A DNA stretch of 53,239 nucleotides from Candidatus Scatosoma sp. (GTDB taxonomy: Bacteria; Bacillota; Clostridia; Christensenellales; Borkfalkiaceae): NCBI GenBank assembly GCA_045656625.1, contig JAZORL010000185.1, positions 1 through 53,239 on the forward strand, given 5' to 3'. The translations under genes were made by a program, and so were the position numbers. Below, piece by piece: positions 4,140-53,239 of the stretch (positions are counted from its first letter, which is position 1; each line of letters begins with the position of its first letter). The notes beneath the pieces are model-generated. The model saw only the letters and a list, made by a program, of their open reading frames with translations, was not told where the DNA came from and ran no database searches.

Positions 4140-4627
4140 TGACGAAATTTCTATTTGGCATTGCCTTGGTGGCGTTTGGAAGCTTTTGCGGGTACTTTTT
4201 GGCTAAGAAATATCGCCAACGAAAGAGCTTTTTTTCGCAATTACGTCTATTTAACGAGCGTTTCATTAATGAAGTTTCTTATTATCGTCGTCCAATTCGT
4301 GAATTTGCAAATCTCTATGCTTTTCAGGGGGAATTTCATTCTTTATTGACGGATTTTTTACAAAATATGGGGGAAAATGGAGGTGGCTGGTCGATTGATG
4401 AGCGAGAGTACGCCTTTTTGAAAAAGGAGGAACGGGGAGCGATTCATGATTATTTTTTAATGATAGGACGAGGGGATAGTGCCTCGCAAAAAGCCTACTT
4501 TTCGTCGGTGAGTAGTGCCATTTCAAAATGGGATTCTGAGGCAAGTTTGGCGGCAAAGAAGTATGGCGATTTATACATAAAACTTGGATTTTTATGCGGA
4601 TTATTTATTTTAATTTTAATCATGTAA
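4136..4627 (+). CDS. spoIIIAB: Stage III sporulation protein AB
   Basis: ATGA overlap with spoIIIAA. It has N- and C-terminal TM helices and a size and position typical of SpoIIIAB. Confidence 0.8.
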   Translation: MMTKFLFGIALVAFGSFCGYFLAKKYRQRKSFFSQLRLFNERFINEVSYYRRPIREFANLYAFQGEFHSLLTDFLQNMGENGGGWSIDEREYAFLKKEERGAIHDYFLMIGRGDSASQKAYFSSVSSAISKWDSEASLAAKKYGDLYIKLGFLCGLFILILIM

Positions 4628-4636
4628 AGAGGTAGT

Positions 4637-4834
4637 ATGGAGATTGGAATTCTTTTCAAAATGGCTGCGATAGGGATTATTATCACGGTAATTTGTCAGA
4701 TATTAAAAAAGTCCGATCGTGATGATATTGCGACGTTGGTAGGGATCGTGGGACTTGTAATTGTGTTAACGCTCGTCGTGGGGAAAATTGGGGATTTATT
4801 TACTCAAATAAAGACGATTTTTGATTTAACGTAG
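4637..4834 (+). CDS. spoIIIAC: Stage III sporulation protein AC
   Basis: 65-aa two-TM protein at the correct operon position. Confidence 0.8.
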   Translation: MEIGILFKMAAIGIIITVICQILKKSDRDDIATLVGIVGLVIVLTLVVGKIGDLFTQIKTIFDLT

Positions 4835-4843
4835 GCGGTAATT

Positions 4844-5239
4844 ATGGCGGAAATTATAAAAGTAATCGGCGTGGCTTTCGTTACGGCGCTTACAGCGCTT
4901 TTATTGCGAGGTACAAAGCCTGAATTGTCTTTTGCTGTAACGGTTACAGGCGTTATTGTGATTTTACTATTTATTGTGAATTATATGAAAACAACCCTTG
5001 TTTTTCTTACGGAAATTTCTGGAATGACGGGGTTGGATAATGGGTTGATTAAAATTCTTTTGAAAATTGTCGGTATTGGGTATTTAACGGAATTTAGTGC
5101 TGGAATTTTGAATGATTTTGGGAGTAATGCAGTAGCCGATAAAGTGATTTTAGCTGGTAAATTAACAATGCTCTTTTTAGCCATTCCCGTGATAAAAACA
5201 TTGTTGCAGCTCATGAAAGGCTTTTTAGGACTTGTATGA
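4844..5239 (+). CDS. spoIIIAD: Stage III sporulation protein AD
   Basis: 131-aa polytopic membrane protein at the correct operon position. Confidence 0.8.
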   Translation: MAEIIKVIGVAFVTALTALLLRGTKPELSFAVTVTGVIVILLFIVNYMKTTLVFLTEISGMTGLDNGLIKILLKIVGIGYLTEFSAGILNDFGSNAVADKVILAGKLTMLFLAIPVIKTLLQLMKGFLGLV

Positions 5240-6447
5240 AAAAGGTCGCTTGTTTCTATAAAAAAAACACGAGAATAATATACATATTTTTTATAATTTT
5301 ATGCATATTGTTTCTTTTTACAAACTTTGAATGCAATCCTCTTACGGCAAAGGCGCAAATGGATAAAGCGACGGATGCGGAATTGGAAGAAAATATTCGA
5401 GAACAGCTTGGTCAACTCGAACTGGAAGAATTGGAAAAATACGTACAATCCATTTCTTCCTTTTCGGATAAAGGTGTAATGGAGCGCATTATCGACTTCG
5501 TGAAGGGCGAAAAATTTGATTACGATGGATTTGGTAGACAAATTTTAAGCGTTTTCTTTTCCAAAGTGCAGGAAATTTTGCCAGCCTTTGTATGCATTGC
5601 TGCCATCGCCGTGCTTTCAGGGCTTATTTCTTCCATCAAAAGTCAAGCCCTATTTAATACATCAACGGACTTAATTTCCTTGATTACATATACGGCAACG
5701 CTGATTCCGCTTATTGCGGTCTTAATAGAGTGCTTTTCCCAAACAAAAGGCAGTATTTTGGAGATGGAAAAACAAATAAAGCTCGTCTTTCCGTTGCTCT
5801 TAACGCTTATGGCGGCGAGCGGGAGTACTGCAACCGCAGCAATTTGCCGACCTGCGGTAGCATTTTTTGGATCAACTATTGTTTCTATTATCCTCACGAT
5901 TGTTCTTCCGATTACTGTGACAATTATTGTTTTTTCTATGGCGAGTCACTTGACCAACGAACTAAAAATCGGAAAGTTCACCGCTTTTTTTAAGAGCATT
6001 AATAAGTGGATTATCGGTATCAGTATTACTGTGTTTGGGCTATTCTTTACTTTGCAGGGATTGACGGCGGCGCATAGTGATGGGATTGTGCGTCGGGCGG
6101 TGAAATATGCGATAGGGAATGGTATCCCTATTGTGGGTGGTTTTCTATCGGGTGGATTTGATTTGACGGTAGCAGGTAGCGTTTTAATTAAAAATGCGCT
6201 GGGTAGTATGAGTATTTTTTTGATGATTTCGGTGATTTTTGAACCACTCGTATTATTAATAGCCGTTAACGTGCTTTTGCGCTTAACTGCGGCAATTTCG
6301 CAGCCTTTGGGGGATGGAAAAGTCGCAGATTTTCTCGGGGAAACGGCGGAAAACTTAAATTACTGTACAGCGTCTTTATTGTTTACGGCGTTTATGTATT
6401 TTTTAACGATTGTATTGATGATTACAGCATCGGAGGCGCTCTTTTGA
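5236..6447 (+). CDS. spoIIIAE: Stage III sporulation protein AE
   Basis: 403 aa with a signal/TM N-terminus and a multi-TM C-terminal domain. It overlaps its neighbours by 4 nt. Confidence 0.85.
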   Translation: MKKVACFYKKNTRIIYIFFIILCILFLFTNFECNPLTAKAQMDKATDAELEENIREQLGQLELEELEKYVQSISSFSDKGVMERIIDFVKGEKFDYDGFGRQILSVFFSKVQEILPAFVCIAAIAVLSGLISSIKSQALFNTSTDLISLITYTATLIPLIAVLIECFSQTKGSILEMEKQIKLVFPLLLTLMAASGSTATAAICRPAVAFFGSTIVSIILTIVLPITVTIIVFSMASHLTNELKIGKFTAFFKSINKWIIGISITVFGLFFTLQGLTAAHSDGIVRRAVKYAIGNGIPIVGGFLSGGFDLTVAGSVLIKNALGSMSIFLMISVIFEPLVLLIAVNVLLRLTAAISQPLGDGKVADFLGETAENLNYCTASLLFTAFMYFLTIVLMITASEALF

Positions 6448-6941
6448 ACGGGTATTTGTTATCGATTATCGGTACGGTATTGTTGAGTGCGATTGTCACG
6501 GTCGTGATTCCCAATGGGAAAACGGCGGGTACGGTCAAGGGGATAGCAAGGCTTGTTTGTGTGCTTGCAATTATTGCGCCGATATTACGTTTTTTTAAGA
6601 CGGGAGAGATGGATTGGACAACGTCGAAAATTGACGGGAACAATTTTTCAAAAAGTGTCATAGAAATCGATCAAGACTTCATAGAGTATTACAGCGAAAG
6701 CCGAGTACGTGAGACGGAAGGGCAAATAGAAACTCTTCTTCTAGAAGAGTTTCATGTGAAAGCGACGGTTTCATTGGAATGGGAGTTGGAAAGTGAAACG
6801 GTGGCGAACCGATATGAATGGGAACGAATACGCATCAAGGGAATTTACGTAAAAATGCCCGAGGATTTCTCGGCGGATGTTTGGAAAAGCGTGCAGAAAT
6901 ATTTGAAGCAAACGTATTGTAGCGAGGTGATCCTTGAATAA
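6444..6941 (+). CDS. spoIIIAF: Stage III sporulation protein AF
   Basis: TTG start overlaps the spoIIIAE stop. Two N-terminal TM helices precede a soluble domain, at the correct operon position. Confidence 0.75.
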   Translation: MNGYLLSIIGTVLLSAIVTVVIPNGKTAGTVKGIARLVCVLAIIAPILRFFKTGEMDWTTSKIDGNNFSKSVIEIDQDFIEYYSESRVRETEGQIETLLLEEFHVKATVSLEWELESETVANRYEWERIRIKGIYVKMPEDFSADVWKSVQKYLKQTYCSEVILE

Positions 6942-7317
6942 TTGGAAGAATCAAACGATGGAAAAGAAAAACCGCTTATTCACGAGTAAAGCAAAGGATT
7001 TGCTTATACTTGCAGGGCTTGGTTTGGTATTAATTTTTGCGTCGTGGAAGATATTTCAAGGGGATCCAAAGCCGTCGAGTAAGACGATGGTTTCCATGAC
7101 GGCAACCGAACAGAAAATTGCGAGGTTGTTAGAGGAAATTGACGGAGTGGGCGATGCGAGTGTGATTGTATGCGAAACGGAAGATGAGGTAAAAAGCGTG
7201 GTTGTTGTATGTGAAGGTGCGGACAATCTACGCGTAATGATAAACGTTCGCGAGGCGGTAAGCGCTGCACTCGGAACTGACCAAAACGTGATAAAAATTT
7301 ATTTGAAAAAAGAATAA
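6934..7317 (+). CDS. spoIIIAG: Stage III sporulation protein AG (short form)
   Basis: One TM helix is followed by a C-terminal ring-building-type domain with the signature VVVVCEGA. The start is either TTG 6934 or ATG 6958. Confidence 0.75.
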   Translation: MNNWKNQTMEKKNRLFTSKAKDLLILAGLGLVLIFASWKIFQGDPKPSSKTMVSMTATEQKIARLLEEIDGVGDASVIVCETEDEVKSVVVVCEGADNLRVMINVREAVSAALGTDQNVIKIYLKKE

Positions 7318-7330
7318 GGAGAAAAAAACT

Positions 7331-7819
7331 ATGTCAAACAAAAAGAAAATCATCTTAATGTCCTCGCTTGTATTATTGCTTGCCATCACGGCAATCTTTA
7401 ATTTCATTTTTGCGAATAAGACGACGGCAACCAGCGCGGATGGTGGGGTGACGACGGCGAATTACTTTACGACCTATCGTGCGGAACGTACGGCAACGCG
7501 GAATCAAGAGCTTGTGCAACTTGACAGTGTAATTGCGCTCTATGAAGAAGGGGAAGAAAAGTATGAAGAAGCGACGGGAATGAAAATGGAAATCGTTGCG
7601 GCAATGGAGCAAGAACTTGTATTGGAAAATATGGTGAAATCGCTTGGTTTTTCCGATGCAGTCGTGTCAGTTTCAACGGAATCTGATAACGTAAACGTCT
7701 TTATCAATTCCGCGGAATTGAATTATGATACTGCGCTTTCGATTTATAATATGCTCAAAAATGAGACGGGCGTCGTCGCTGGAAACGTAATTATCATGCC
7801 CGTCTATTCAGAAAGCTGA
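7331..7819 (+). CDS. spoIIIAH: Stage III sporulation protein AH
   Basis: AAGGAG RBS, N-terminal TM helix, and last position in the operon. Confidence 0.75.
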   Translation: MSNKKKIILMSSLVLLLAITAIFNFIFANKTTATSADGGVTTANYFTTYRAERTATRNQELVQLDSVIALYEEGEEKYEEATGMKMEIVAAMEQELVLENMVKSLGFSDAVVSVSTESDNVNVFINSAELNYDTALSIYNMLKNETGVVAGNVIIMPVYSES

Positions 7820-14377: not shown

Positions 14378-15397
14378 ATGCGTAAGTTGGGTATTTTTAT
14401 TTTTACACTTTCGACGTTGTTTGTAGGAATGGCGAGCAGGCAGCCTATAACCCTCGCAAGTGCGGATTCGACCAAGCAGGAAAAAGTCGTATACGTTGGC
14501 GGAATGTCGGCAGGATTTACCTTAAAAACGGAGGGAGCGCAAGTAATTGGTACTTGTGAAGTAGCAACGAATGACGGTGTGTGCAGACCTGCAAGAGATG
14601 CGGGTGTGCGTGCAAACGATACGATTATGAAGGTAAATGGTATTAAAATTGAATCCATTACACAGTTAAATGAAATTATCAATAAAAGTAAAGGAAGCTC
14701 GATGAATTTCGAGATTTTACGAAGAAATAACTTGATAAATCTTGAAATAACACCCCAAAAGGATGCCCAAACGAATCGATATAAAATTGGGGTGTTGATA
14801 CGTGATTTTGTTTCGGGAATTGGAACAGTCACCTATATAGATAGAGAAAATGGGCGTTTTGGTGCATTGGGACATGCCGTAATGGGCGAAAATCGCAAAG
14901 AAATGCAAATTTTGGATGGAAACGTATATGCATGCAGTATTATCGGCGTAAATAAAGGTATCCGTGGGCGTGCGGGTGAGCTACGAGGCGCATTTTTGAA
15001 TGATAAACCGCTTGGAAAGGCGGAAAAACTGTGTGATTGTGGTATTTTTGGGGAGATATCCGTCGATTTTAAGACGGATGAGTTGATGAGCGTCGTGGCG
15101 AGTTCGAACAGCGCAATTCCTGGAAATGCGTGCATTTATACGACGATAGACGGCGTTTCACCTAAAAAATATGATATAGAAATCGTAAAAGTCGATAAAT
15201 CTAATAAAGAAAATAAAAATTACGTGATAAAAATCAAAGATGAGGCTCTCATTGAGGAAACGGGCGGTATTGTACAAGGAATGAGTGGCAGTCCAATTCT
15301 ACAAAACGGCAAAATGATAGGGGCGGTGACGCACGTTTTTTTGAATGACCCTACGCGCGGCTATGGAATTGACGTGGAAACGATGCTAAGAGAATAA
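14378..15397 (+). CDS. spoIVB: SpoIVB signalling serine peptidase (S55, PDZ domain)
   Basis: Signal anchor, PDZ region (GVRANDTIMKVNG), catalytic region GALGHAV ... GMSGSPIL, and position after recN. Confidence 0.9.
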   Translation: MRKLGIFIFTLSTLFVGMASRQPITLASADSTKQEKVVYVGGMSAGFTLKTEGAQVIGTCEVATNDGVCRPARDAGVRANDTIMKVNGIKIESITQLNEIINKSKGSSMNFEILRRNNLINLEITPQKDAQTNRYKIGVLIRDFVSGIGTVTYIDRENGRFGALGHAVMGENRKEMQILDGNVYACSIIGVNKGIRGRAGELRGAFLNDKPLGKAEKLCDCGIFGEISVDFKTDELMSVVASSNSAIPGNACIYTTIDGVSPKKYDIEIVKVDKSNKENKNYVIKIKDEALIEETGGIVQGMSGSPILQNGKMIGAVTHVFLNDPTRGYGIDVETMLRE

Positions 15398-15470: not shown

Positions 15471-16685
15471 ATGAAAAAAATTGCAAGTATGGTTTTAGCT
15501 GTTGTGTCGTTTGGTTTTGTTGCGGCTGGCGCACGATTTTATGCAAAAAATGGCTTAAAAACGGCGAAAGCGGTAGCGGAAGCTGTGACAATGGATGAAA
15601 AACCAGCAAAGGACGTATTGGATATTTCCGCAAAGGCGGCGTATTTGATGGATAATTATTCCAAAACGGCAATTTATTCCCATCAAGAAGAGGAAAGATT
15701 GCCGATTGCGAGTATGTGCAAGATTATGACGCTATTGTTGTCTTTTGATGCGATTCGTGCAGGGAATTTGTCCTTTGACGAAGAAATTATGGTTAGTGAA
15801 AGAGCAGCTTCCATGGGTGGTTCGCAGGTTTTTTTGGAGGCAAACGCCAAATATTTGGTGAAAGAGCTTATTAAAAGCGTGGTGATTTGTTCGGCAAATG
15901 ACAGTTGCGTAGCGCTTGCGGAGAGAATTGCAGGTAGCGAGCAGATATTCGTTGATAGAATGAATGAAAAAGCGAAGGAAATTGGTGCGAATAATACGCT
16001 TTTTGCGAATTGTACGGGTTTACCCAAAGAGCCGCAATATTCTTGCGCCAAGGACGTAGCTTTGATGTTGAGCAAGCTTTTGGAGAATGAGGAATATTAT
16101 GGCTTTGGGAAGGTTTGGATGGATAAATTTGAGCATCCCGAAGGGCGATATACGGAAATCACGAATACGAACAAATTAATTCGTTTCTATGATGGTTGTG
16201 ACGGCGGTAAAACGGGATTTACGAACGAAGCTGGTTTTTGCCTTGCTGCAACTGCAAAACGAGATAATACCCGAATTATTTCCGTTGTGATTGGGGAAAA
16301 GGATAGTAAACAACGTTTTGACGATGTAAGAACAATGTTTGATTATGCGTTTGCGAATTATACAACGAAAAAGATTGTGCAAGCGGACGTACCGTTGGGA
16401 GAACGGGCAAGGGTTGACGGTGGAAAGTCAACGAGTATAGCAGTTGCGCCACAGCGAGACGCCTACCTTTTTTTGCGGCGCGGAATGCAAGGCGATATCA
16501 CTTCGGAAATATCCCTAAAAAGCGTAAAAGCGCCTTGTAAAAAGGGGGACGTTGTGGGGCAATTACGAATATATCAAGCTGGTGTAGAGATTGATAGCAT
16601 ACCGATTGTCGCCTATGAAAGCGTTAAGAAAGCAAACTTTTTTGATTGTTTGAAAGAGGTTGCGGAAGAATGGAATAAACATTAA
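15471..16685 (+). CDS. D-alanyl-D-alanine carboxypeptidase (PBP5/DacF-like, S11)
   Basis: Signal peptide and the motifs SMCK (SxxK), SAND (SxN) and KTGFT (KTG). Confidence 0.88.
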   Translation: MKKIASMVLAVVSFGFVAAGARFYAKNGLKTAKAVAEAVTMDEKPAKDVLDISAKAAYLMDNYSKTAIYSHQEEERLPIASMCKIMTLLLSFDAIRAGNLSFDEEIMVSERAASMGGSQVFLEANAKYLVKELIKSVVICSANDSCVALAERIAGSEQIFVDRMNEKAKEIGANNTLFANCTGLPKEPQYSCAKDVALMLSKLLENEEYYGFGKVWMDKFEHPEGRYTEITNTNKLIRFYDGCDGGKTGFTNEAGFCLAATAKRDNTRIISVVIGEKDSKQRFDDVRTMFDYAFANYTTKKIVQADVPLGERARVDGGKSTSIAVAPQRDAYLFLRRGMQGDITSEISLKSVKAPCKKGDVVGQLRIYQAGVEIDSIPIVAYESVKKANFFDCLKEVAEEWNKH

Positions 16686-21016: not shown

Positions 21017-21363
21017 TGGAACTTTCTACGGAAAAAATGGGGTTAATGGCGGATGCGGACATTGTTGTGGGGAAACCGATTACAACGGCAAGCGGTTTTC
21101 AAGTGATTCCATTTTCAAAAGTGACGCTTGGAAGCGTGACGGGAGGCGGTGAATACGGAAAAGCAAAGCAGGTAAAGCAAATGGGTGAAATACCCTTTGC
21201 GGGCGGTAGCAGTGCGGCTATTAGTATGAAACCAATGGGGTTTATCATTGACGATGGTACTTCGTGTCGCATACTACGTATTGCTGATGCGCCGTTGGAT
21301 AATTTGATTGAACGACTTGGAGAGATTTTACAAGATGCATTCCCCAAAAAAGATGAAGAATAA
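20983..21363 (+). CDS. ytfJ: GerW/YtfJ-family sporulation protein
   Basis: IVVGKPITTASGFQVIPFSKV ... GGGEYG ... core typical of the YtfJ/GerW family. Confidence 0.8.
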   Translation: MSEKNEKLNNLMELSTEKMGLMADADIVVGKPITTASGFQVIPFSKVTLGSVTGGGEYGKAKQVKQMGEIPFAGGSSAAISMKPMGFIIDDGTSCRILRIADAPLDNLIERLGEILQDAFPKKDEE

Positions 21364-22363
21364 GCGTATTTTTGCGGTACTTTTTCTTTTTACGGGATTG
21401 TTTTTTTCGTTTAGACCGCAAATTGCGGCAAAAGCGGAAAAGGTGTTGACATCGGCAGCGGAATGCGTTATGGAAAGAAGAAGTCGGCGTATTTTATACG
21501 AATGGCATGGAGATATGCGTTTGCCAATGGCGAGTACAACCAAAATTGCAACGGCAATCACCGCGTTAGAAGAAAGCCCTAACATAAAAGAAACCTTTGA
21601 AATTCCAAGCGAAGCGGTCGGTGTTGAAGGTTCGTCGGTATATTTGAAGATCGGGGAAACGTATTCGGTGGAAGATTTGCTTTATGGGCTTATGTTGCGA
21701 TCGGGAAACGATTGCGCGGAAGCTTTGGCTTATCGATTTGGAGGGAGTATAGACCGTTTTGCCGCAAAAATGAATCAAACGGGGCAAAAGGCAGGTGCAA
21801 TGCACACGAATTTTCGCAATCCACACGGTTTGCCCTGCGACGGACATTATACCACGGCGCGAGATTTATCCTTGATTACGGCGTACGCATTAGAAAATCC
21901 AATCTTTCGTGAGATTGTTGCAACGAAATATTACGAACCGAGGCATTGGAAAAATAAAAATAAAATGCTTTTTCAGTATGACGGTGCAATCGGCGTAAAG
22001 ACTGGTTATACAAAGGAAGCAGGGCGTTGTTTGGTTTCCGCCGCAACAAAGAATGGCATGGAGCTTGTTTGTACGGTGTTAAATAGTCCGCAAATGTATG
22101 AAAGGTCTACGGAGTTATTGAACGACGCATTCGAGGCTTACTCGTATGAAAAAATTATCGACGAAAAGCAAATATTTACCATTCAAGGGCAAGAATGCTG
22201 TGCCTGTCAAAACGTGTATTATCCGCTAATGCAAGGGGAGATGGATGCGATAGAAATATTGATTGTTCCCGTAAATTCGTCCAAAAAAAGAGAAATTATC
22301 GGTCAAATTCAAATAAGCCTTGCGAAACGGTTGATTTTTTCGGGGAATTTATATAAACTATAA
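21353..22363 (+). CDS. D-alanyl-D-alanine carboxypeptidase (DacB-like, S11)
   Basis: Signal peptide and the motifs STTK (SxxK), SGN and KTGYT. ATG 21353 (or 21335) is preferred over track start 21308, which overlaps ytfJ deeply. Confidence 0.85.
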   Translation: MKNKRIFAVLFLFTGLFFSFRPQIAAKAEKVLTSAAECVMERRSRRILYEWHGDMRLPMASTTKIATAITALEESPNIKETFEIPSEAVGVEGSSVYLKIGETYSVEDLLYGLMLRSGNDCAEALAYRFGGSIDRFAAKMNQTGQKAGAMHTNFRNPHGLPCDGHYTTARDLSLITAYALENPIFREIVATKYYEPRHWKNKNKMLFQYDGAIGVKTGYTKEAGRCLVSAATKNGMELVCTVLNSPQMYERSTELLNDAFEAYSYEKIIDEKQIFTIQGQECCACQNVYYPLMQGEMDAIEILIVPVNSSKKREIIGQIQISLAKRLIFSGNLYKL

Positions 22364-23235: not shown

Positions 23236-23613
23236 ATGATTGAGAATCGGAAAAAAGTTTTATATAGCGTAGTTATTGTTTTGTTGAATGTGACGCTTGC
23301 TTTATTTACGGCATTAAATATAATCTTAAATATAATCAATTGGGATTCGATGACGGATATATATTTCTTTCTTTTTTCTAAATGTTTCTGGCTTTTATCA
23401 TTTGTCACTTTGCTTTTTCATATTCCTAAGTTGTTTAATTGGCTTTATCCAAAGCTAGCTTCATTGGTTAACAATGCAAGACCTGAATTTTTTTCAACTT
23501 CTTCTCAATATCACGCATTACCAAAAAATAAAGTGTATAAAAATTTAAAATGCGCTACCATAATATTGTTGCTTATTTCGATAGTGATTGAACTAATATT
23601 ATTTTTAATTTAA
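23236..23613 (+). CDS. Hypothetical small membrane protein (about 3 TM), very AT-rich
   Basis: It has an RBS and a consensus promoter, and hydrophobic segments are visible. I recognise no family. Base composition is much more AT-rich than the neighbours. Confidence 0.5.
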   Translation: MIENRKKVLYSVVIVLLNVTLALFTALNIILNIINWDSMTDIYFFLFSKCFWLLSFVTLLFHIPKLFNWLYPKLASLVNNARPEFFSTSSQYHALPKNKVYKNLKCATIILLLISIVIELILFLI

Positions 23614-23619
23614 TACAAC

Positions 23620-23651
23620 AAAAGGTCGTAGGAGAAATCCTGCGACCTTTT
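23620..23651 (+). terminator. Hairpin containing 19-nt direct repeat copy 2
   Basis: aaaggtcgtagga-gaaa-tcctgcgaccttt forms a 13-bp stem (one G-U) with a GNRA-like loop and a short T run. Confidence 0.5.
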
Positions 23652-23668
23652 GCCATAATCCAAAACGC

Positions 23669-23697
23669 TTGACAAAACCCATGTTTTTGTGTATGAT
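23669..23697 (+). promoter_or_regulatory. Sigma-A-type promoter with no obvious gene
   Basis: TTGACA-17 nt-TATGAT preceded by tgtg. Only about 45 nt separate it from the hairpin at 23747-23770. Confidence 0.4.
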
Positions 23698-23741
23698 AAT
23701 AATGGCAATATCGTTAAGAGAAGAGAGTTTGCGTTCACGTT

Positions 23742-23770
23742 AAAAAAGAGTTCTACAAGCGTAGAACTCT
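23742..23770 (-). terminator. lexA terminator
   Basis: agagttctac-aagc-gtagaactct forms a 10-bp stem. On the minus strand it is followed by T6, 26 nt after the lexA stop. Confidence 0.75.
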
Positions 23771-23795
23771 TTCAATTTCTTAAATTAATATGAGA

Positions 23796-24392
23796 TTATG
23801 ATCTATAATTTCGCATCAAGCCAACGACTTTCCCAAGAATGGAAACTTGTCCGTCTTCATAAATCATATCGGATAAGGATTCGTTTTCAGGGTGCAAAAT
23901 CACTTGCCCGTTGCGGCGATAAAAGCGTTTAACGGTTGCGGAATCTTCCACTAAAGCGACGACAATTTCGCCGTTTTCCGCAGTTTCTTGGCGGCGTACG
24001 ATGATTTTGTCGCCGTTCATAATGCCAGCGTCGATCATGGACGTACCGTCAACGCGAAGCATAAATAAGTCTTCGCCCTTAAATTCGCCCATAGGGAAGG
24101 TGTAATAATCTTCGTAGTTTTCATAAGCAAAGACGGGCTGACCTGCGGTGACTGTACCAATCAAAGGAATAGATATGCCAGAGCTTTTGCCGATAGTCAC
24201 CGAGCGCTTTTTGTTCGTTGCTTTATTCAAGTATCCACGCGTTTGCAATTTTTCCAAATAGCTATGCACGGTTGCGGTGGATTTAATGCCACATTCCTTG
24301 CCGATTTCTCGCACGGAAGGGGTGTACCCATTTTCTTCCGAGAACTTACGAATATAATCCATTACTCGGATCAATTTTTCTTCGCTGACCAT
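23796..24392 (-). CDS. lexA: LexA repressor (S24 autopeptidase)
   Basis: Winged-helix N-terminus (GYTPSVREIGKE), VTAGQP cleavage-site region, GTSMIDAGI (Ser) and IVRRQ (Lys). ATG 24392 follows GGGGG; the TTG at 24404 is less likely. Confidence 0.93.
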   Translation of the reverse strand: MVSEEKLIRVMDYIRKFSEENGYTPSVREIGKECGIKSTATVHSYLEKLQTRGYLNKATNKKRSVTIGKSSGISIPLIGTVTAGQPVFAYENYEDYYTFPMGEFKGEDLFMLRVDGTSMIDAGIMNGDKIIVRRQETAENGEIVVALVEDSATVKRFYRRNGQVILHPENESLSDMIYEDGQVSILGKVVGLMRNYRS

Positions 24393-24423
24393 AATAGCCC
24401 CCAATACAGATTAATCTACGTAC

Positions 24424-24452
24424 ATTATAACACGTATTTCTACAAAATGCAA
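24424..24452 (-). promoter_or_regulatory. lexA promoter (sigma-A type)
   Basis: Minus strand reads TTGCAT-17 nt-TATAAT. Confidence 0.5.
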
Positions 24453-24462
24453 ACAAATGTTT
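24451..24462. promoter_or_regulatory. Candidate degenerate SOS (Cheo-type) box
   Basis: AAAC-AAAT-GTTT palindrome compared with the Firmicute LexA box GAAC-N4-GTTC (one mismatch per arm). It overlaps the lexA -35. Confidence 0.3.
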
Positions 24463-24503
24463 AATATTTTTCCAAAATTTTTCATAAAAACGGAAAATTT
24501 ATC

Positions 24504-24531
24504 TTGATTTTTATGGAAAAACTGCTATAAT
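24504..24531 (+). promoter_or_regulatory. Sigma-A-type promoter of the Cys-rich small gene
   Basis: TTGATT-16 nt-TATAAT. Confidence 0.45.
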
Positions 24532-24560
24532 AGTATTATAAAGAAAGGAGCAATGAGATT

Positions 24561-24749
24561 ATGGAAAGAAAAATTGGTATGCCGTGCGTTTTATACGATC
24601 GTGAATGCGTCGGCTGTTTGGAGTGCGAAACGTGCGACCTTGATCCCAACAAGGTTTGCGATAATTGCGGCAAATGTATCGAAATGGACGACGTTGCATC
24701 GATTAAAATCGACAAAATCTACACCAATCCCGACGAATATAAGGATTAA
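24561..24749 (+). CDS. Small Cys-rich protein (62 aa), unknown function
   Basis: AAAGGAG lies 10 nt upstream. Eight Cys include CxxCxxCxxC (C16-C25) and CxxCxxC (C33-C39). No TM helix. Followed by a strong terminator. Confidence 0.6.
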   Translation: MERKIGMPCVLYDRECVGCLECETCDLDPNKVCDNCGKCIEMDDVASIKIDKIYTNPDEYKD

Positions 24750-24766
24750 AAATAGTTGAATAATAC

Positions 24767-24794
24767 AAAAGACGGGCGATTGCCCGTCTTTTTT
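24767..24794. terminator. Bidirectional terminator (Cys-rich gene / hflX)
   Basis: gacgggc-gatt-gcccgtc is flanked by an A run and a T6 run. Confidence 0.8.
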
Positions 24795-24805
24795 CGTATC
24801 ATTGA

Positions 24806-26059
24806 TTAAAAGTCTAATTTTTTCACAAGAAATTCGGTGAATTTTTCCGCATAGCGAGTGGGAATAACCGCATTGACGGTTAAACCATCGTCCGTGTAAT
24901 GCATGGAACGCTCCGTGAGTAAATTCTTAATACGGTTGTACTGATTAACGCTTATATAGGGAACGAACAGCTCGCAAAAAATAAAATCTTCACGAAATTG
25001 CTGCAAAATGGCGTGTTTTAACTCGTCAATCCCCAAATTTTCTTTCGCTGAAATGGCAATGCTTTCATAAGGAAAAGCCGATTGCTCACGAATATTCTCG
25101 CTTTTATTCATTACAACGAGATAAGGGGAGTTGAAACTCATTTCTTCAAGCGTTTCCAGCGTTGTTTTGAGTTGCATATCATATTCGCCCGTAGAATCGC
25201 ATACAATTAACGCTAAATCGCAGTTTAATGCGCTTTCCAAAGTAGATTTGAAGGCTTCAATGAGATTGTGAGGCAAGTCCTGTAAAAAACCTACGGTGTC
25301 AACAAGTAAAAACTCTACGCCATCAATTTTGAAGCTTCTTGCCGTTGGGTCAAGCGTTGCAAAAAGCTCGTTTTTGACGTATACGTTCGATTCGGTCAAT
25401 AGATTCATCAAAGTGGACTTACCCGTATTCGTATAACCAACAAGAGCAATGGTTTTTACGTCCGTTTTCTTGCGTCGAACTGTCTGCAAGGCACGCCGTT
25501 TTTCCGTTTCTTTGAGCCGTTTTTCAAGATAATTCAAGCGACCGCGGATATATCTTCGGTCGGTTTCCAACTGCGTTTCCCCAGGCCCGCGCGTACCGAC
25601 GCCACCGCCCAAACGAGATAGTGCGCCGCCTTTGCCTTTCAAACGAGGGTAAAGATATTTTAATTGCGCCAATTCGACTTGAAGCTTACCTTCGCTTGAC
25701 TGTGCGTTTTTCGCAAAAATATCCAAAATAAGGGTCGTGCGGTCAATCACTTTGCGATCGTCCAATACAGCGGAAATATTGAGAGTTTGGGAAGGGGAAA
25801 GCTCACCGTTAAAAAGGATCGTCACGTCCTCTAAACCGCTTAAAAGCTCGCGAATTTCCAAAAGTTTCCCCGAACCGAAAAAGGTTGCGGCGTTGATTTC
25901 ACGGATATTTTGATAGGTCGTACCGCAATAGAGCGCGCCTGCACTTTCAATAAGGGAAACGGCTTCTTCCTGTAAAACCTTATATTTATCCGCGTTCTCA
26001 TGCGTTATGGGCTGTAAAATATAGATTTTTTCAATAGTTGTATCAATTGTTTCGTGCAT
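24806..26059 (-). CDS. hflX: GTPase HflX
   Basis: HflX N-terminal domain, G1 GYTNTGKSTLMN and G3 DTVGF. 417 aa. Confidence 0.92.
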   Translation of the reverse strand: MHETIDTTIEKIYILQPITHENADKYKVLQEEAVSLIESAGALYCGTTYQNIREINAATFFGSGKLLEIRELLSGLEDVTILFNGELSPSQTLNISAVLDDRKVIDRTTLILDIFAKNAQSSEGKLQVELAQLKYLYPRLKGKGGALSRLGGGVGTRGPGETQLETDRRYIRGRLNYLEKRLKETEKRRALQTVRRKKTDVKTIALVGYTNTGKSTLMNLLTESNVYVKNELFATLDPTARSFKIDGVEFLLVDTVGFLQDLPHNLIEAFKSTLESALNCDLALIVCDSTGEYDMQLKTTLETLEEMSFNSPYLVVMNKSENIREQSAFPYESIAISAKENLGIDELKHAILQQFREDFIFCELFVPYISVNQYNRIKNLLTERSMHYTDDGLTVNAVIPTRYAEKFTEFLVKKLDF

Positions 26060-27132
26060 TATTCGTTATTATCTTCGTTTTGGTTGTCGTTTTCTTGGCG
26101 CAACTTCACTGCGCTTGCAACTCTTCTACGGTTTTCTTGCGTAATAGCCGCATAGTGCTTTTTGGTCGTATTGACGTCACGATGTCCTAAAACGTCCGCA
26201 ACGATATAAATATCGCCAGTGGAGTTGTATAAACGTGTACCGTACGTACTACGAAGTTTATGCGGTGTGATTTTTTTTAAAGGGGAAACAAGTTTGCTGT
26301 ACTTTTTCACCAAAATCTCAACGGTACGTACGTTGATGCGCTTATATTGCATCGACAAGAAGAACGCTTCTTCTGTTTCAGGAACTTTCGGATCGTTTCG
26401 TTTTTCCGCAATATACTCTTGCAAAGCGTACTTGACTTCATCAGAAAAGAACAAAATCGCCTGATTTCCGCCTTTTCGTGTGACCAGGAAGGAGTTTTCT
26501 TCAAAATCAAAGCTATCATTATCCAACCCAACAAGCTCACTAATACGAATACCTGTGCCGAGGAATAGGGTAAGAATCGCAGTATCGCGAACTTTTGTCT
26601 TATTGTGATAACCTCCCGCATGAGGGGAAAGACCTTTTCCGCTTTCCGCAACGTTAATCAAATCGGATACTTCCTCCGCATCCAAACGAATAATTTCCTT
26701 CTCGTGGAGCTTGGGTGTGGGAACTTTTGCCGCATTATCCACTTGAATTAATCCTTTATTGAAGAAATACTTAAAAATCGCTCGAACCGCCGATAATTTG
26801 CGCGCTTTTGCACGCTCATCGCAGGATAAACGCTTGTCACGGAAGCGATAGTGGGATAAATAACTCAAAAAGAACTCGATATCATTATGCGAAACCGCCT
26901 CTAAATGCTGCAAGGTTAAGTCAAGTACGCCTAAATTCTTATACTTGCGCTGGCACAAGAAATCAAAGAAAATACGCAAATCGTACGCATATTTTAATCG
27001 AGTTTGCGAGCTCGTACGTGTTTCAATCCCTAAAAAATAATCTTCGCAAAAAGAGGGGAGTTCGTTCAAAAGCTCGGCAATCTTGTCTAAATCCGATATA
27101 TTACGTTTGACATAGTAGTTTTCGTTTTTCAT
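26059..27132 (-). CDS. Tyrosine recombinase, XerC/XerD-like
   Basis: SAM-like N-domain plus catalytic R (GTGIRISEL), HKLRSTYGT (HxxR) and LGHRDVNTTKKHY (H...Y). Its stop TAA shares one nt with the hflX ATG (TAATG). Confidence 0.85.
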   Translation of the reverse strand: MKNENYYVKRNISDLDKIAELLNELPSFCEDYFLGIETRTSSQTRLKYAYDLRIFFDFLCQRKYKNLGVLDLTLQHLEAVSHNDIEFFLSYLSHYRFRDKRLSCDERAKARKLSAVRAIFKYFFNKGLIQVDNAAKVPTPKLHEKEIIRLDAEEVSDLINVAESGKGLSPHAGGYHNKTKVRDTAILTLFLGTGIRISELVGLDNDSFDFEENSFLVTRKGGNQAILFFSDEVKYALQEYIAEKRNDPKVPETEEAFFLSMQYKRINVRTVEILVKKYSKLVSPLKKITPHKLRSTYGTRLYNSTGDIYIVADVLGHRDVNTTKKHYAAITQENRRRVASAVKLRQENDNQNEDNNE

Positions 27133-27138
27133 ACTTAT

Positions 27139-27167
27139 ATTCTACTGCATGAATAGGGAAAAGTCAA
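27139..27167 (-). promoter_or_regulatory. Sigma-A-type promoter abutting the recombinase start codon
   Basis: Minus strand reads TTGACT-17 nt-TAGAAT, then 6 nt, then the ATG. No Shine-Dalgarno sequence. Confidence 0.5.
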
Positions 27168-27227
27168 TAGTTTGATGAGATTTTCCGAAAAGTTAGAGCA
27201 AAATCTTTGTAAAAATAGGATAGAAAT

Positions 27228-27260
27228 AAGAAAGCGTTCGCAAAAATGCGAACGCTTTTG
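27228..27260 (-). terminator. Terminator of the glycogen operon
   Basis: gcgttcgca-aaaa-tgcgaacgc forms a 9-bp stem with U-rich flanks on both strands. Confidence 0.7.
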
Positions 27261-27497
27261 ATAGAATAAGGGGAATTATTCGGAAAATTTTTTCTAAAAG
27301 GTTGTTATTCAATCTTAATTTTACAAAGAGAGATTGCTGAAAGCCTTGAAATATAAGGGATTGCAGCGGGTAATATAGATAAATTGTTTCGGTAGGGAAT
27401 TAATCAAACTATTCGTAAAATGCAGGTTTTACGAAAACATCAGGCTGTTTTTCAAACAAAAAGGGCTTTTCAAACAATTTTCGAGCATTTTTTCTTT

Positions 27498-29390
27498 TTA
27501 TTGTTTTACGAAGATTTTATAAGAATACGGTTTTACTTCCAAAAAATCTTGATAATTTTCATTCGTCAAGCAATCGACGTATTTTTCCGATAATTTTAAT
27601 AAATGTGTTTTTGAAGAATTATTCGCAAACACGTAGATACTTTGATTGTTTTTTGTACGTTTGTAAAAAATCAAACCGTTTTGACATTCTAAGTCGATAA
27701 AATCGCCGTCGTTAAATATATCACGGTATTTTTCACGGATTTCGCCAAGTTTAGAATAAAATCCAATCAAATCTTCGTTCAAATGCTCCCAATCGAAGCA
27801 TTTTCGGCAAAATGGATCAATATGTCCTTCCATTCCATTTTCGTCACCGTAATATAAGCACGGCACGCCAGGCAAGGTATATTGCAAAACAGCCGCCATT
27901 TTCAGTTTTTCAATCGCACTTTTCTTTGTGTTTTCAGACATATATGCCTGCGGCGAAGCCATTTCGTCCTTATTATGACAATAAATTCCGCCTAAAACCG
28001 TTAAAATACGCGCCGTATCATGCGTTCCGAGAATATTCATTAAGCAATCGAGCGTTTGCTTGGGATAATGATTGATTAAAACACGAATATTATGCAACAA
28101 ATCTATTGCATTTCCCGTTTGCATATAATGAATAATACTATCCTTTAACGGATAATTCATCACGCTGTCAAGCTCGTAGCCTTGTAAATACTCACGGCGC
28201 TCAGAATATGCGATTTTATTGGACGCATCTTCCCAAACCTCACCGATAATAATGGCGTTTTCGTCTTCTTCCTTCACGGATTTTCGAAGTTTTTTCAAAA
28301 AGAAATCGGGAAGCTCGTCAGCAACGTCAAGTCGGTAGCCACCAATCCCGAAGCCGAGCCATTTTTTCAATACACCGCCCTTTTCAAAGATAAAATTTTG
28401 ATATGATTCGGAATGTTCGTTGACCTCGGGTAAAATATCAATTCCCCACCAACTGCTGTATTTATCGGGAAATTCTTGGAAAGAATACCAAGAATAATAA
28501 GGCGAATCCTTCGATTGATACGCACCTACGGACGGATATTCACCATATTTATTAAAATAAACGCTATTATCGCCCGTATGATTGAATACGCCGTCTAAAA
28601 TTACACGAATTCCAAGCTTTTTTCCTTCTTCGATTAATTCCTTAAAATCTTTTTCCTCGCCTAAAAACGGGTCGATTTTCATATAATCGGAAGTATCGTA
28701 GCGGTGATTTGATGCCGCTTCAAAAATAGGATTGCAATAAATCACCGTTACGCCAAGACTCTTCAAATACGGCAGCTTTTCGATAATACCTTGAATGTTT
28801 CCGCCAAAAAAGTCGTTATTTAATACTTTTCCATGCTCATTCGGCCGATAAGACGGCAAACCGCCCCAATCATTGCGCTTCACTCTTCCTTTTATGTCAG
28901 GCATACTACCTGTTTTATGGAAACGATCAGGGAAGATTTGATACATTACGCCGCCCTTAAACCATTCAGGCGTTTTATAATCGGAAGAATGTATGGTCAA
29001 TAAAAAGCCGTTTGCATGTTCAGTCAGAACGCCAAGCTCCATATAGCCGCAAGATATATTTCCTACACCTTCAATATAAAAGCTGTAAAAATACAAACCG
29101 ATTTCTTCAATAGAAATGGAAATCGTCCAACCGAATCCCGTTTTGCTCATAGGAAATAATTCGGCTTCTTCCCCATCTTTATTTAAGCGTAAAAAGGCAT
29201 TATTGCACGGTTCAAAGCAATCGCAAAGATTCGGTGTTTTTGTGCAAAAATCTTGATTTTGCATACAATAACAGTTCGTATTCGGCGTTTCCTTTACGTG
29301 ATAAATATTTAGTTGTATTTTTTCGTCCGTGGATATTGCGCCAATCCTGCTTTTACACGCAGTATCTAATGGATTGAAATAAATTCGCAT
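27498..29390 (-). CDS. GH13 alpha-amylase-family enzyme (neopullulanase/cyclomaltodextrinase-like)
   Basis: GH13 conserved regions DGVFNHTG, GYRLDVADE, GEVWED and LGTHDT, with an N-terminal beta-sandwich extension. Confidence 0.88.
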   Translation of the reverse strand: MRIYFNPLDTACKSRIGAISTDEKIQLNIYHVKETPNTNCYCMQNQDFCTKTPNLCDCFEPCNNAFLRLNKDGEEAELFPMSKTGFGWTISISIEEIGLYFYSFYIEGVGNISCGYMELGVLTEHANGFLLTIHSSDYKTPEWFKGGVMYQIFPDRFHKTGSMPDIKGRVKRNDWGGLPSYRPNEHGKVLNNDFFGGNIQGIIEKLPYLKSLGVTVIYCNPIFEAASNHRYDTSDYMKIDPFLGEEKDFKELIEEGKKLGIRVILDGVFNHTGDNSVYFNKYGEYPSVGAYQSKDSPYYSWYSFQEFPDKYSSWWGIDILPEVNEHSESYQNFIFEKGGVLKKWLGFGIGGYRLDVADELPDFFLKKLRKSVKEEDENAIIIGEVWEDASNKIAYSERREYLQGYELDSVMNYPLKDSIIHYMQTGNAIDLLHNIRVLINHYPKQTLDCLMNILGTHDTARILTVLGGIYCHNKDEMASPQAYMSENTKKSAIEKLKMAAVLQYTLPGVPCLYYGDENGMEGHIDPFCRKCFDWEHLNEDLIGFYSKLGEIREKYRDIFNDGDFIDLECQNGLIFYKRTKNNQSIYVFANNSSKTHLLKLSEKYVDCLTNENYQDFLEVKPYSYKIFVKQ

Positions 29391-46135: not shown

Positions 46136-46395
46136 TCGGCAAACCCGTTTCTCGTCAATATTTCCACGAATCTTTCTACGTCGGTGCGTGCTTTTTCGTC
46201 CGCAACTTCGTATTCCGAGCAAAGTGCCTCTACACCATCGTCAACGGAATGTTCTTCCGTATAAAAACGCCATAAAAATGCGCCTGTCGAATTCAAATTA
46301 ATCATTCCATGGAATTCTTTGCTCATTTTTCCTACGGGTACGACTACCGTTTCACCGCCGACTTCTCTTAAAACAAACCCCTTTTTAATTTGCAT
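46132..46395 (-). CDS. PqqD-family protein (candidate RiPP recognition element)
   Basis: 87 aa. The MQIKKGFVLREVGGETVVVPVG ... INLNSTGAFLW ... EYEVADEKARTDVERFVEILTRNGF pattern is typical of small PqqD-like proteins. Its ATG lies 2 nt after the upstream stop. Confidence 0.65.
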   Translation of the reverse strand: MQIKKGFVLREVGGETVVVPVGKMSKEFHGMINLNSTGAFLWRFYTEEHSVDDGVEALCSEYEVADEKARTDVERFVEILTRNGFAE

Positions 46396-49974: not shown

Positions 49975-50262
49975 ATGAATATTAAACCCTTATTCGACAA
50001 AGTCGTTGTGGAAAGCGTGACTGTTGAAGAAAAAACCAAGAGCGGTTTTTTCCTTCCCTCTTCGGCACAAGAAAAGCCCCAAACCTGCCTTGTAGTGGCA
50101 GTTGGCCCTGGTGGCATCATTGATGGCAAAGAAATCGTTATGCAAGTAAAACCTGGCGACAAAGTGCTTTGCTCGAATTATGCAGGCTCGAATTTCAAAG
50201 TTGACGGCAAAGAATTTACAATTTTGAAACAAAGCGATATTCTTGCTATCGTAGAAGACTAA
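49975..50262 (+). CDS. groES: Co-chaperonin GroES
   Basis: MNIKPLFDKVVV start after GGAGGA. The upstream TTG 49963 is less likely. Confidence 0.95.
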   Translation: MNIKPLFDKVVVESVTVEEKTKSGFFLPSSAQEKPQTCLVVAVGPGGIIDGKEIVMQVKPGDKVLCSNYAGSNFKVDGKEFTILKQSDILAIVED

Positions 50263-51912: not shown

Positions 51913-51930
51913 TTTGACAACAAAATGATA

Positions 51931-51960
51931 AAAGCGACTGCAAGATGCAGTCGCTTTTTT
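51931..51960. terminator. Bidirectional terminator (groEL / spo0A)
   Basis: gcgactgc-aagat-gcagtcgc is followed by T6 and preceded by an A-rich run. Confidence 0.8.
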
Positions 51961-51971
51961 AGTTATATTGA

Positions 51972-52733
51972 TTATCCCATATTTTCTAAAATCAATTTAT
52001 CGGCGATTAAAGCAATAAATTCGCTATTCGTAGGTTTTTCCACGCCCAAATATACACGCGTGCCAAAAATAGCGTTTATCGCGTCGATTCTACCGCGATT
52101 CCATGCTACTTCTATGGCGTGGCGGATCGCCCTCTCTACCTTGCTTGACGTAGTAGAAAATTTCTTTGCGATCGTTGGATACAATTCTTTCGTCACGCTA
52201 TTGATTATATAAGGTCGCTCCACCGTCATTTTAATTCCTTCACGTAAGTACCCATATCCTTTAATATGCGGCGGAATCCCAATCGAGATAAAGATTTCGC
52301 TGATCTTTTCTTCCGTTGTCGCAGGTTTTTTTCTCGCAATCGCTATTTCTCTATTTTCACTTACCTTATTTCGCATAAGTTCACGAATACGTTCAAGCGC
52401 AGTGGTAATCGAAAAAGGTTTTACTAAATAGTAGCAAGCTCCTTCCGAAAGCGCTCGTTCAATCAACTCGTCGTTCGCAACTCCCATTGCTACAATCTTT
52501 GCATCCGCCCACGTCTTTTTAATGGTGCGAATGACACCGCAGCCGTCCGTTCCCTTCAAAAACATACCTACCACAACTAAATCGGGTTTAAGCCTTAAAA
52601 TTTCCTTTACCCCATTGTCCCCATCATCTCCCGCATATAAAAGGTTGAAATCCTTATTTTCGGAAAACGCATCCTGCAATTGCGCTAAAACCGCGCTGTT
52701 TGATTCCAAAATAATGACCGAATTTGCACGCAT
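51972..52733 (-). CDS. spo0A: Spo0A sporulation master regulator homolog with non-canonical receiver
   Basis: Clear Spo0A C-domain (GIPPHIKGYGYLREGI, SKVERAIRHAIEVAW, KPTNSEFIALIADKL). GGAGG lies 9 nt before the ATG. The receiver has Glu10, Ser11 and Gly56 in place of Asp10, Asp11 and Asp56. Confidence 0.9.
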   Translation of the reverse strand: MRANSVIILESNSAVLAQLQDAFSENKDFNLLYAGDDGDNGVKEILRLKPDLVVVGMFLKGTDGCGVIRTIKKTWADAKIVAMGVANDELIERALSEGACYYLVKPFSITTALERIRELMRNKVSENREIAIARKKPATTEEKISEIFISIGIPPHIKGYGYLREGIKMTVERPYIINSVTKELYPTIAKKFSTTSSKVERAIRHAIEVAWNRGRIDAINAIFGTRVYLGVEKPTNSEFIALIADKLILENMG

Positions 52734-52789
52734 TATTTTTTACCTCCAATTTTGTTTTTTATTTTCGACTTTCTTTTAATCGTGCTCTC

Positions 52790-52818
52790 ATTATACTACA
52801 TATAATTTAAGATTGCAA
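52790..52818 (-). promoter_or_regulatory. Sigma-A-type promoter of spo0A
   Basis: Minus strand reads TTGCAA-17 nt-TATAAT. Confidence 0.5.
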
Positions 52819-52890
52819 GTAATATTTTACAAAAATCATAAATATTTTTCAATTAATTTAGAATATTTTACAAAATTATTAAATAATCGG

Positions 52891-52907
52891 TGTCGAAATA
52901 TGTCGAA
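52891..52907. promoter_or_regulatory. Two perfect tandem 0A boxes
   Basis: TGTCGAAataTGTCGAA has a 7-bp box, a 3-bp spacer and a 7-bp box, head to tail. It lies about 160 bp upstream of the spo0A start. Confidence 0.6.
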
Positions 52908-52969: not shown

Positions 52970-53239
52970 TTATGCGTGCGTTTCGTCAATATATTCGTCG
53001 TAGGTGACTTGACGGTCGTACGTCTTTTTATCGTTGATTTCGATGATGCGGTTTGCAACGGTGTTCAACAATTCTTGGTCGTGCGAGGTCAAAAGCATAC
53101 AGCCTTTATAATTGCTTAAACCATTATTTAACGCCGTAATGGATTCCAAATCAAGATGGTTCGTCGGTTCGTCAAAGATAAGGAAATTGCTTCCTTCCAA
53201 CATCATTTTTGCAAGCATACAGCGTACTTTTTCGCCACC
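52970..53239 (-). CDS. ABC-F-type ATPase, C-terminal part only (runs off right edge)
   Basis: The frame is open to nt 53239. It shows GGEKVRC (end of the LSGGE signature), LIFDEPTNHLD Walker B and a TSHD H-loop. Confidence 0.8.
   Translation of the reverse strand, partial: GGEKVRCMLAKMMLEGSNFLIFDEPTNHLDLESITALNNGLSNYKGCMLLTSHDQELLNTVANRIIEINDKKTYDRQVTYDEYIDETHA

Follow-up and report, generated by a model that had tools for sequence, protein, structure and literature searches.

The open reading frame (ORF) at 51972-52733, on the reverse strand of a 53,239-nt stretch of DNA from Candidatus Scatosoma sp. (contig JAZORL010000185.1 of assembly GCA_045656625.1, positions 1 to 53,239, analysed in full and hereafter called the window), probably encodes the Spo0A ortholog of its lineage, with a receiver domain that has no phosphorylatable aspartate and an activity that would be independent of His-Asp phosphotransfer. 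The protein is Spo0A in an aspartate-less-receiver form, and this form is fixed across a large, uncultured lineage of the gut in which sporulation genes are maintained. Scatosoma is listed among the Clostridia incertae sedis in the NCBI taxonomy and presumably belongs to the Christensenellales, as in GTDB. Asp56 phosphorylation of Spo0A counts as the universal way into endospore formation, and comparative studies of how sporulation starts are concerned only with which kinases or relays act on the protein. To our knowledge, every Spo0A that has been studied is switched on through a phospho-aspartate and metal-binding residues.

The 253-aa product begins at an ATG (52733-52731) preceded by a GGAGG ribosome-binding site (52743-52747, minus strand), and no longer N-terminus is possible because an in-frame TAA lies three codons 5' of the start (52742-52740). 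The initial annotation, which had described a good ribosome-binding site and an untruncated N-terminus, was thus right on both counts, as it was in recognizing Spo0A in the C-terminal half. The DNA-binding and transcription-activation domain Spo0A_C (residues 144-247, 51993-52304, minus strand) matches PF08769 over 104/104 positions (1.1e-39) and, among solved structures, the Spo0A effector domains 1LQ1 (6.7e-38) and 1FC3 (2.9e-37). The whole protein scores 224.8 bits with the NCBIfam Spo0A equivalog model TIGR02875 (cutoff 200, residues 5-251), which is ~90 bits beyond what Spo0A_C alone contributes, whereas a generic receiver model gives 46 bits. The receiver (REC) domain occupies residues 4-120 (52374-52724, minus strand). 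A comparison with the Pfam Response_reg model PF00072, which the initial annotation had suggested, returned 46.1 bits over residues 6-116, above the cutoff of 30.2, and solved structures of generic receivers were matched at about 1e-8.

It is in the active site of this domain that the protein departs from what is known of Spo0A. Alignment to B. subtilis Spo0A with MAFFT pairs E10/S11, G56, M83 and K105 with D10/D11, D56, T86 and K108, respectively. Codon 56 (GGT, 52566-52568) thus specifies Gly at the position of the phosphoacceptor, and codons 10 and 11 (GAA TCA, 52701-52706) put Glu-Ser where canonical Spo0A has the Mg-binding Asp-Asp pair, both exactly as the initial annotation had read them. 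The conserved Lys, also noted there, is kept at codon 105 (52419-52421) and followed by Pro-Phe; this Lys and the Pro are present in 120/120 relatives. One detail had to be corrected. The initial annotation had aligned the conserved Thr/Ser of the switch with G84, which is one residue off, since the MAFFT column of T86 and a Thr-to-Lys spacing constant at 22 residues both place it at M83 (codon 83, 52485-52487). Its claim that the switch Thr is absent is nevertheless correct for the window protein, though not for the clade, as 81 of the 120 nearest homologs have Thr in this column and 33 have Met. The active-site quintet (DD, D, T/S, K) on which Mg-dependent phosphotransfer relies in orthodox two-component response regulators is therefore incomplete, with only the Lys and a conservative Glu at the first acidic position remaining. 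Because the acceptor Asp and the second Asp of the Mg-binding pair are replaced, and in this species the switch Thr too, the window Spo0A should not be activated by His-Asp phosphotransfer, be it from a phosphorelay or from orphan kinases, and would not be phosphorylatable by either.

These substitutions are shared throughout a clade. None of the 120 closest database homologs (75-96% identity) has Asp at residue 56, where Gly is found in 96, Ser in 23 and Asn in one, and E10 and S11 are found in 119/120 and 110/120, respectively. A wider set of 80 loci, with one genome scanned per species and Spo0A identities of 53-96%, carries the labels Candidatus Scatosoma, Candidatus Gallimonas, 'Catabacter sp.' or unnamed Clostridia metagenome-assembled genomes (MAGs) and comes from animal and human guts; D56 is absent in 77 of these 80 species-level genomes, nearly all of which have E-S at 10-11. 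The E10/S11/G56 pattern that the initial annotation had proposed to look for in close relatives is thus conserved, with Gly or another non-Asp residue at 56. Codon 56 is variously GGA, GGT, GGG, GGC, AGT, AGC, AAT, GCA or GAY, so that all four Gly codons are in use, and Ser11 is written with both TCN and AGY codons. The ratio of nonsynonymous to synonymous substitution rates (dN/dS), estimated for the receiver from 38 unsaturated pairs, is ~0.17 (dN 0.011 / dS 0.63 against the closest relative), compared to ~0.04 for the effector domain. Since the receiver is under purifying selection, degeneration is excluded, and a pseudogene, decay or relaxed selection was accordingly discarded as an explanation. 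Receiver identity to B. subtilis is only 18%, whereas canonical Spo0As whose effector domain is equally similar (56-57%) have receivers that are 38-41% identical, which indicates a phase in which change sped up, after which constraint returned. The proposal in the initial annotation of a phosphorylation-independent pseudo-receiver Spo0A gains support from the clade-wide conservation of the substitutions and from this selection, in so far as comparison of sequences can provide it.

An AlphaFold2 model of the protein shows an ordinary (beta-alpha)5 receiver, with a mean predicted local distance difference test score (pLDDT) of 70.8 and receiver blocks mostly at 75-89. In this model, G56 is the C-terminal end of beta3 (52-56), M83/G84 are at the end of beta4 and K105 is just after beta5. 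Foldseek superposed the model receiver on those of CheY, Spo0F and Spo0A with target template-modelling scores of 0.83-0.88 and root-mean-square deviations of 2.0-2.9 Å, a comparison which, at the model quality reached, does not distinguish active from inactive conformations. Strong conservation is seen for the residues of the remodelled pocket, i.e. E10, N12, L59-K60-G61-T62-D63-G64, Y102 and K105-P106-F107. In addition, the beta2-alpha2 loop carries an acidic cluster (D36-D37-G38-D39 within residues 36-40, DDGDN, 52613-52627) that varies little or not at all within the genus. This cluster shares a face with the former active site; canonical Spo0A and the clade's deeper branches do not have it.

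The order in which the active site was lost can be approached from its distribution. On a neighbour-joining tree of the clade, built with the three key columns excluded, residue 56 changed at least 18 times among G/S/N/A/D, while its neighbours stayed fixed and E10-S11 nearly so. The three Scatosoma species with D56 (L027, L032 and L039 in our set) form a single nested monophyletic subclade in which the codon is GAY and E10-S11 is still present, and their Asp looks like a reversion at a freely varying site. In the same three species, Arg replaces Lys at position 60. The nearest outgroup clusters (P0130, P0125, P0128 and P0184) have D56, but D11 has already gone. Because they keep D56 without D11, these sequences are most simply read as showing that loss of the metal-binding pair came first; from then on, a small residue would have been enough at position 56.

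Loss of the site does not seem to be confined to this clade. Representatives of 50%-identity clusters were searched exhaustively, and of the 114 alignable full-length Spo0A-like clusters nearest to the query, 22 (in the P0121-P0270 range) have no D56 but G, S, N, E, Q or Y instead. Parsimony on a rough tree of the 114 clusters gives ~16 independent changes of D56, and the second acidic residue (D11) is absent in many more clusters than D56. Phospho-site loss in Spo0A-like proteins thus looks recurrent in uncultured Clostridia. The same search uncovered unusual architectures. P0122, P0124, P0126 and P0127 (394-454 aa) consist of three or four tandem Spo0A_C domains without a receiver, and in P0208 (495 aa) two receiver stretches are combined with two of Spo0A_C; these architectures are not known to have been described.

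In contrast to the receiver, the effector domain is nearly unchanged. It is 57% identical to that of B. subtilis Spo0A, and the stretch SKVERAIRHAIEVAW aligns with B. subtilis SRVERAIRHAIEVAW, which we take to be the recognition helix, with a single R to K difference. Upstream of the gene lie two perfect tandem 0A boxes (TGTCGAA nnn TGTCGAA, site TGTCGAAnnnTGTCGAA, 52891-52907, plus strand) in a 10-bp register, at 52891-52897 and 52901-52907, i.e. ~160-175 nt 5' of the spo0A start codon. Perfect 0A boxes number seven in the entire window, including these two. Upstream sequence was long enough in 74 loci, of which 62 have a 0A box at the equivalent position, between -112 and -175 relative to the start codon, and 15 a perfect tandem, against a background of about one relaxed 0A box per kb. 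Two sigma-70-like promoters are predicted by consensus scan between the tandem boxes and spo0A, TTGCAA-17-TATAAT (52790-52818) and TTGAAA-17-TAAAAT (52824-52852), both on the minus strand. The conserved boxes and the position of the putative promoters between them and the gene fit a DNA-binding Spo0A that would regulate its own gene. A 0A-like box between the proximal -10 and the ribosome-binding site (AGTCGAA, 52764-52770, minus strand, one mismatch to TGNCGAA) was not relied on, since it is weakly conserved, with a perfect box in the -55 to -21 stretch in 8/79 relatives compared to 1.1% of shuffles. Elsewhere in the window, perfect 0A boxes at 49993-49999, between a deaminase gene and groEL (probably the groES region), and at 46285-46291, between two unannotated minus-strand ORFs, are possible Spo0A targets.

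The genomic setting is partly classical. The window contains spoIIIAA-AH, nusB, folD, ispA, tlyA, nadK, argR, recN and spoIVB, but spo0A, whose usual place is immediately downstream of spoIVB, is ~36 kb away from it on the opposite strand. There, spoIVB (14378-15397, plus strand, TIGR02860 at 327.6 bits) is directly followed by a D-Ala-D-Ala carboxypeptidase gene, dac, which starts 73 nt later and ends at 16685, and then by lysA. The order recN-spoIVB-dac-lysA also occurs in four relatives (L085-L088). The initial annotation had considered that a canonical spo0A beside spoIVB would make the window gene a paralog; the slot inside the window holds dac instead, as it does in the four relatives, a check that covers the spoIVB slot alone. 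Across most of the 80 loci, even where Spo0A identity is down to 53%, spo0A is preceded by an ABC-F ATPase gene detected by tblastn, the 3' end of which is at 52970-53239 (minus strand) in the window. This upstream neighbour, kept across the clade, is a 525-aa ABC-F gene in L081-L083, and in a 53%-identical cluster spo0A sits between abcF and polA-coaE. On its other side, spo0A shares a bidirectional intrinsic terminator (51930-51958, 13-bp stem) with the convergent groEL. Each of the 80 loci (up to 20 kb) has one Spo0A match, spo0A would be single-copy, and matching contig sizes of SpoIVB and Spo0A homologs (e.g. 214,555 and 80,726 bp) suggest that both genes share contigs in several relatives.

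Some further features of this region are worth recording. The dac gene that sits where spo0A normally is (15471-16685) and a second D-Ala-D-Ala carboxypeptidase gene (21308-22363) flank a block of lysA, M50, scpA, scpB and ytfJ. Gene orientation and GC skew flip at 23500-27500, genes being on the plus strand before ~23.6 kb and on the minus strand after, and lexA (23796-24404) and a tyrosine recombinase gene (26059-27132) are located at this strand switch. The region may be a replication terminus or an inversion breakpoint separating spo0A from spoIVB. A dif-like site of the B. subtilis type was not found near it.

Whether the lineage sporulates bears directly on how this protein is to be viewed. 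The initial annotation had argued from the rest of the window that it does, and this is strengthened by selection. All eight spoIIIA genes (3288-7819), spoIVB and ytfJ are intact. For the window genes also covered in L088, a collinear relative (dS 0.5-1.0), dN/dS is 0 to 0.2 for spoIIIAC-AH, 0.05 for spoIVB and 0.05 for ytfJ, which is the range of nusB, recN, lysA and scpA. The spoIIIA proteins are mostly well under the NCBIfam equivalog cutoffs (162 vs 281 for AA, 55 vs 146 for AB, 30 vs 148 for AG); with spoIIIAC-AH under strong purifying selection, the feeding-tube operon is divergent but maintained. SpoIVB is full-length throughout the clade. No cultured carrier was found among the homologs, which have only uncultured 'Clostridia bacterium' or Scatosoma names, and a metagenome scan with SpoIVB matched a single 2.4-kb contig.

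How might such a Spo0A work? The receiver is retained by purifying selection as a folded module which, by analogy with other aspartate-less receivers, would most likely hold the protein in an active-like, dimerization-competent state or free the effector domain from inhibition. That domain, nearly unchanged, would bind canonical 0A boxes, including the tandem pair upstream of its own gene, and activity would be set mainly by the amount of protein, through autoregulated transcription, and possibly be modulated by a partner or ligand at the remodelled pocket. On this analogy, control would be constitutive or abundance-based. Laboratory alleles lend plausibility to such a mechanism, as engineered phosphorylation-independent Spo0A drives sporulation genes in B. 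subtilis. Reportedly, sad67, a deletion within the Spo0A receiver attributed to Ireton et al. in 1993 (as cited in PMC10294663), gives output without phosphorylation, and in alleles of this kind expression level is said to drive the sporulation genes once Asp56 phosphorylation is dispensed with. They are, however, engineered and placed in a phosphorelay-dependent host, whereas the window protein is natural, ancient, clade-fixed and has a full-length receiver. We propose, tentatively and with doubt slightly outweighing belief, that Scatosoma, Gallimonas and their allies, a whole and abundant group of gut Clostridia, enter endospore formation through a Spo0A that never undergoes phosphorylation, without a phosphorelay or sporulation kinases, the decision being made by autoregulated abundance or by another input at the pocket.

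Several points weigh against a phosphorylation-independent Spo0A running sporulation in this lineage. Non-phosphorylatability is deduced from residues, promoter assignments are consensus matches, and sporulation in a clade that has no cultured member is suggested by genes. The structural model has moderate confidence and gives no indication of an active or inactive state. The sequence covered was the window and the loci of relatives, and a second canonical spo0A, Spo0F/Spo0B or sporulation kinases may lie elsewhere in the genome. Finally, given how strongly the remodelled pocket is conserved, some signal may still reach the site, which would then be more than a passive scaffold. This last point leads to the most serious alternative, in which the receiver is still an input domain, only for a different signal (a protein partner, a small ligand, a redox-sensitive Cys, or phosphorylation or another modification of a non-canonical residue), so that Spo0A would be switched post-translationally and not by abundance only. 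It would account for the purifying selection on the receiver and for the invariant residues around the former active site and in helix alpha1 (N12, L16, Q18), as well as for the D36-D37-G38-D39 cluster and C65, which are nearly invariant within the genus; Ser, found at position 56 in 23/120 nearest homologs, would also suit it, and aspartate-less receivers such as RitR reportedly accept other inputs (PMC4395418). We nevertheless regard this as unlikely, if well worth keeping in view, because no conserved partner gene adjoins spo0A except the housekeeping-type ABC-F gene, the commonest residue at position 56, Gly, is not modifiable, C65 and the DDGD cluster are lost in deeper branches (L072-L080) and the sequence indicates no ligand.

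The remaining alternatives question the identity of the protein, the lifestyle of its host or the data themselves. A divergent paralog with a side role, leaving sporulation to a canonical phosphorylatable spo0A elsewhere in the genome, could explain why the gene is away from its usual post-spoIVB place and why its receiver is so divergent, and many Spo0A-like clusters with odd architectures do exist in metagenomes. It seems difficult to reconcile, however, with the empty spoIVB slot in the window and four relatives, a score above the Spo0A equivalog cutoff, one copy in each of the 80 loci, a distance of ~36 kb from spoIVB with shared contigs suggested in several relatives, 0A boxes conserved in its own promoter as in spo0A genes and an effector domain with a dN/dS of ~0.04, and we consider it improbable. 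Harder still to credit is the view that the lineage does not sporulate and that Spo0A is a remnant repurposed as an ordinary unregulated transcription factor. Cultured Christensenella species are said not to form spores (as quoted in PMC11536998), and although some Christensenellales MAGs are predicted to sporulate, most are predicted not to by one tool (PMC12536801); the low scores of the spoIIIA proteins could be read in the same sense. Yet none of the eight spoIIIA genes, spoIVB or ytfJ is damaged, those set against L088 are under purifying selection of housekeeping strength, the clade has kept a full-length SpoIVB throughout, and cultured Christensenellaceae strains of human faecal origin have been cited as endospore formers (Sun et al., 2024, in PMC12536801). 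As for the view that codons 10, 11 and 56 reflect faulty sequencing or assembly, a single G-to-A change would indeed turn GGT into GAT, but the same substitutions occur in 120/120 homologs and 77/80 species genomes. As they recur in more than 100 independent assemblies with synonymous codon diversity, a miscall is ruled out, its chance being practically nil, and long-term maintenance follows.

Phosphorylation-independent control by Spo0A can also be set against known systems. Canonical Spo0A (B. subtilis P06534 and its Clostridium and C. difficile counterparts; 1QMP, 1FC3, 1LQ1) has the same two-domain architecture, an effector domain to which that of the window protein is close, TGTCGAA boxes upstream of its own gene, a region with spoIIIA and spoIVB, and a passing score with TIGR02875. 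In contrast, the window Spo0A has no D11, D56 or T86, Glu instead of D10 and a receiver with little identity; its gene follows an ABC-F gene and converges with groEL rather than lying downstream of spoIVB, and it would presumably need no phosphorelay or kinase. A truncated Spo0A of phages likewise has its effector domain freed from phosphorelay input (PMC10294663), although it has no receiver at all, whereas the window gene is chromosomal, clade-syntenic and encodes a conserved receiver.

The closest parallels are found among aspartate-less receivers (ALRs), which commonly act constitutively or on other inputs and keep the dimer interface (Maule et al., 2015, PMC4395418). The window receiver, a receiver-family match without a phosphorylatable Asp at the end of beta3, belongs with them. 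Like RitR of S. pneumoniae and ChxR, it has the receiver fold without the phosphorylatable Asp, a remodelled pocket, the often-kept Lys and beta5 aromatic, and a domain under selection, but the main replacement here is Gly and not Glu, Asn or similar. Further ALRs or atypical response regulators include HP1043 and GlnR. We know of no characterized ALR with a Spo0A_C output or control over a developmental master switch. A published description of a Spo0A without Asp56 was not found in the literature searched, the sole prior trace being a census line in table S6 of Maule et al. (2015), which counts, without comment, seven aspartate-less proteins among 391 Response_reg~Spo0A_C sequences (PMC4395418). 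The Galperin 2022 preprint, Davidson 2018 and the phage spo0A paper (PMC10294663) make no mention of one. Aspartate-less Spo0A-like proteins are common in uncultured Clostridia, apparently without having been discussed beyond one census table.

If the proposal is correct, cells can decide on sporulation without recourse to two-component signalling, which would overturn the rule of Spo0A~P as the universal trigger. This would affect the prediction of sporulation capacity from gut metagenomes and the meaning given to missing kinases or phosphorelays in Clostridia, as well as where new inputs to Spo0A are to be sought, be it in the control of its abundance, in partners or in ligands.

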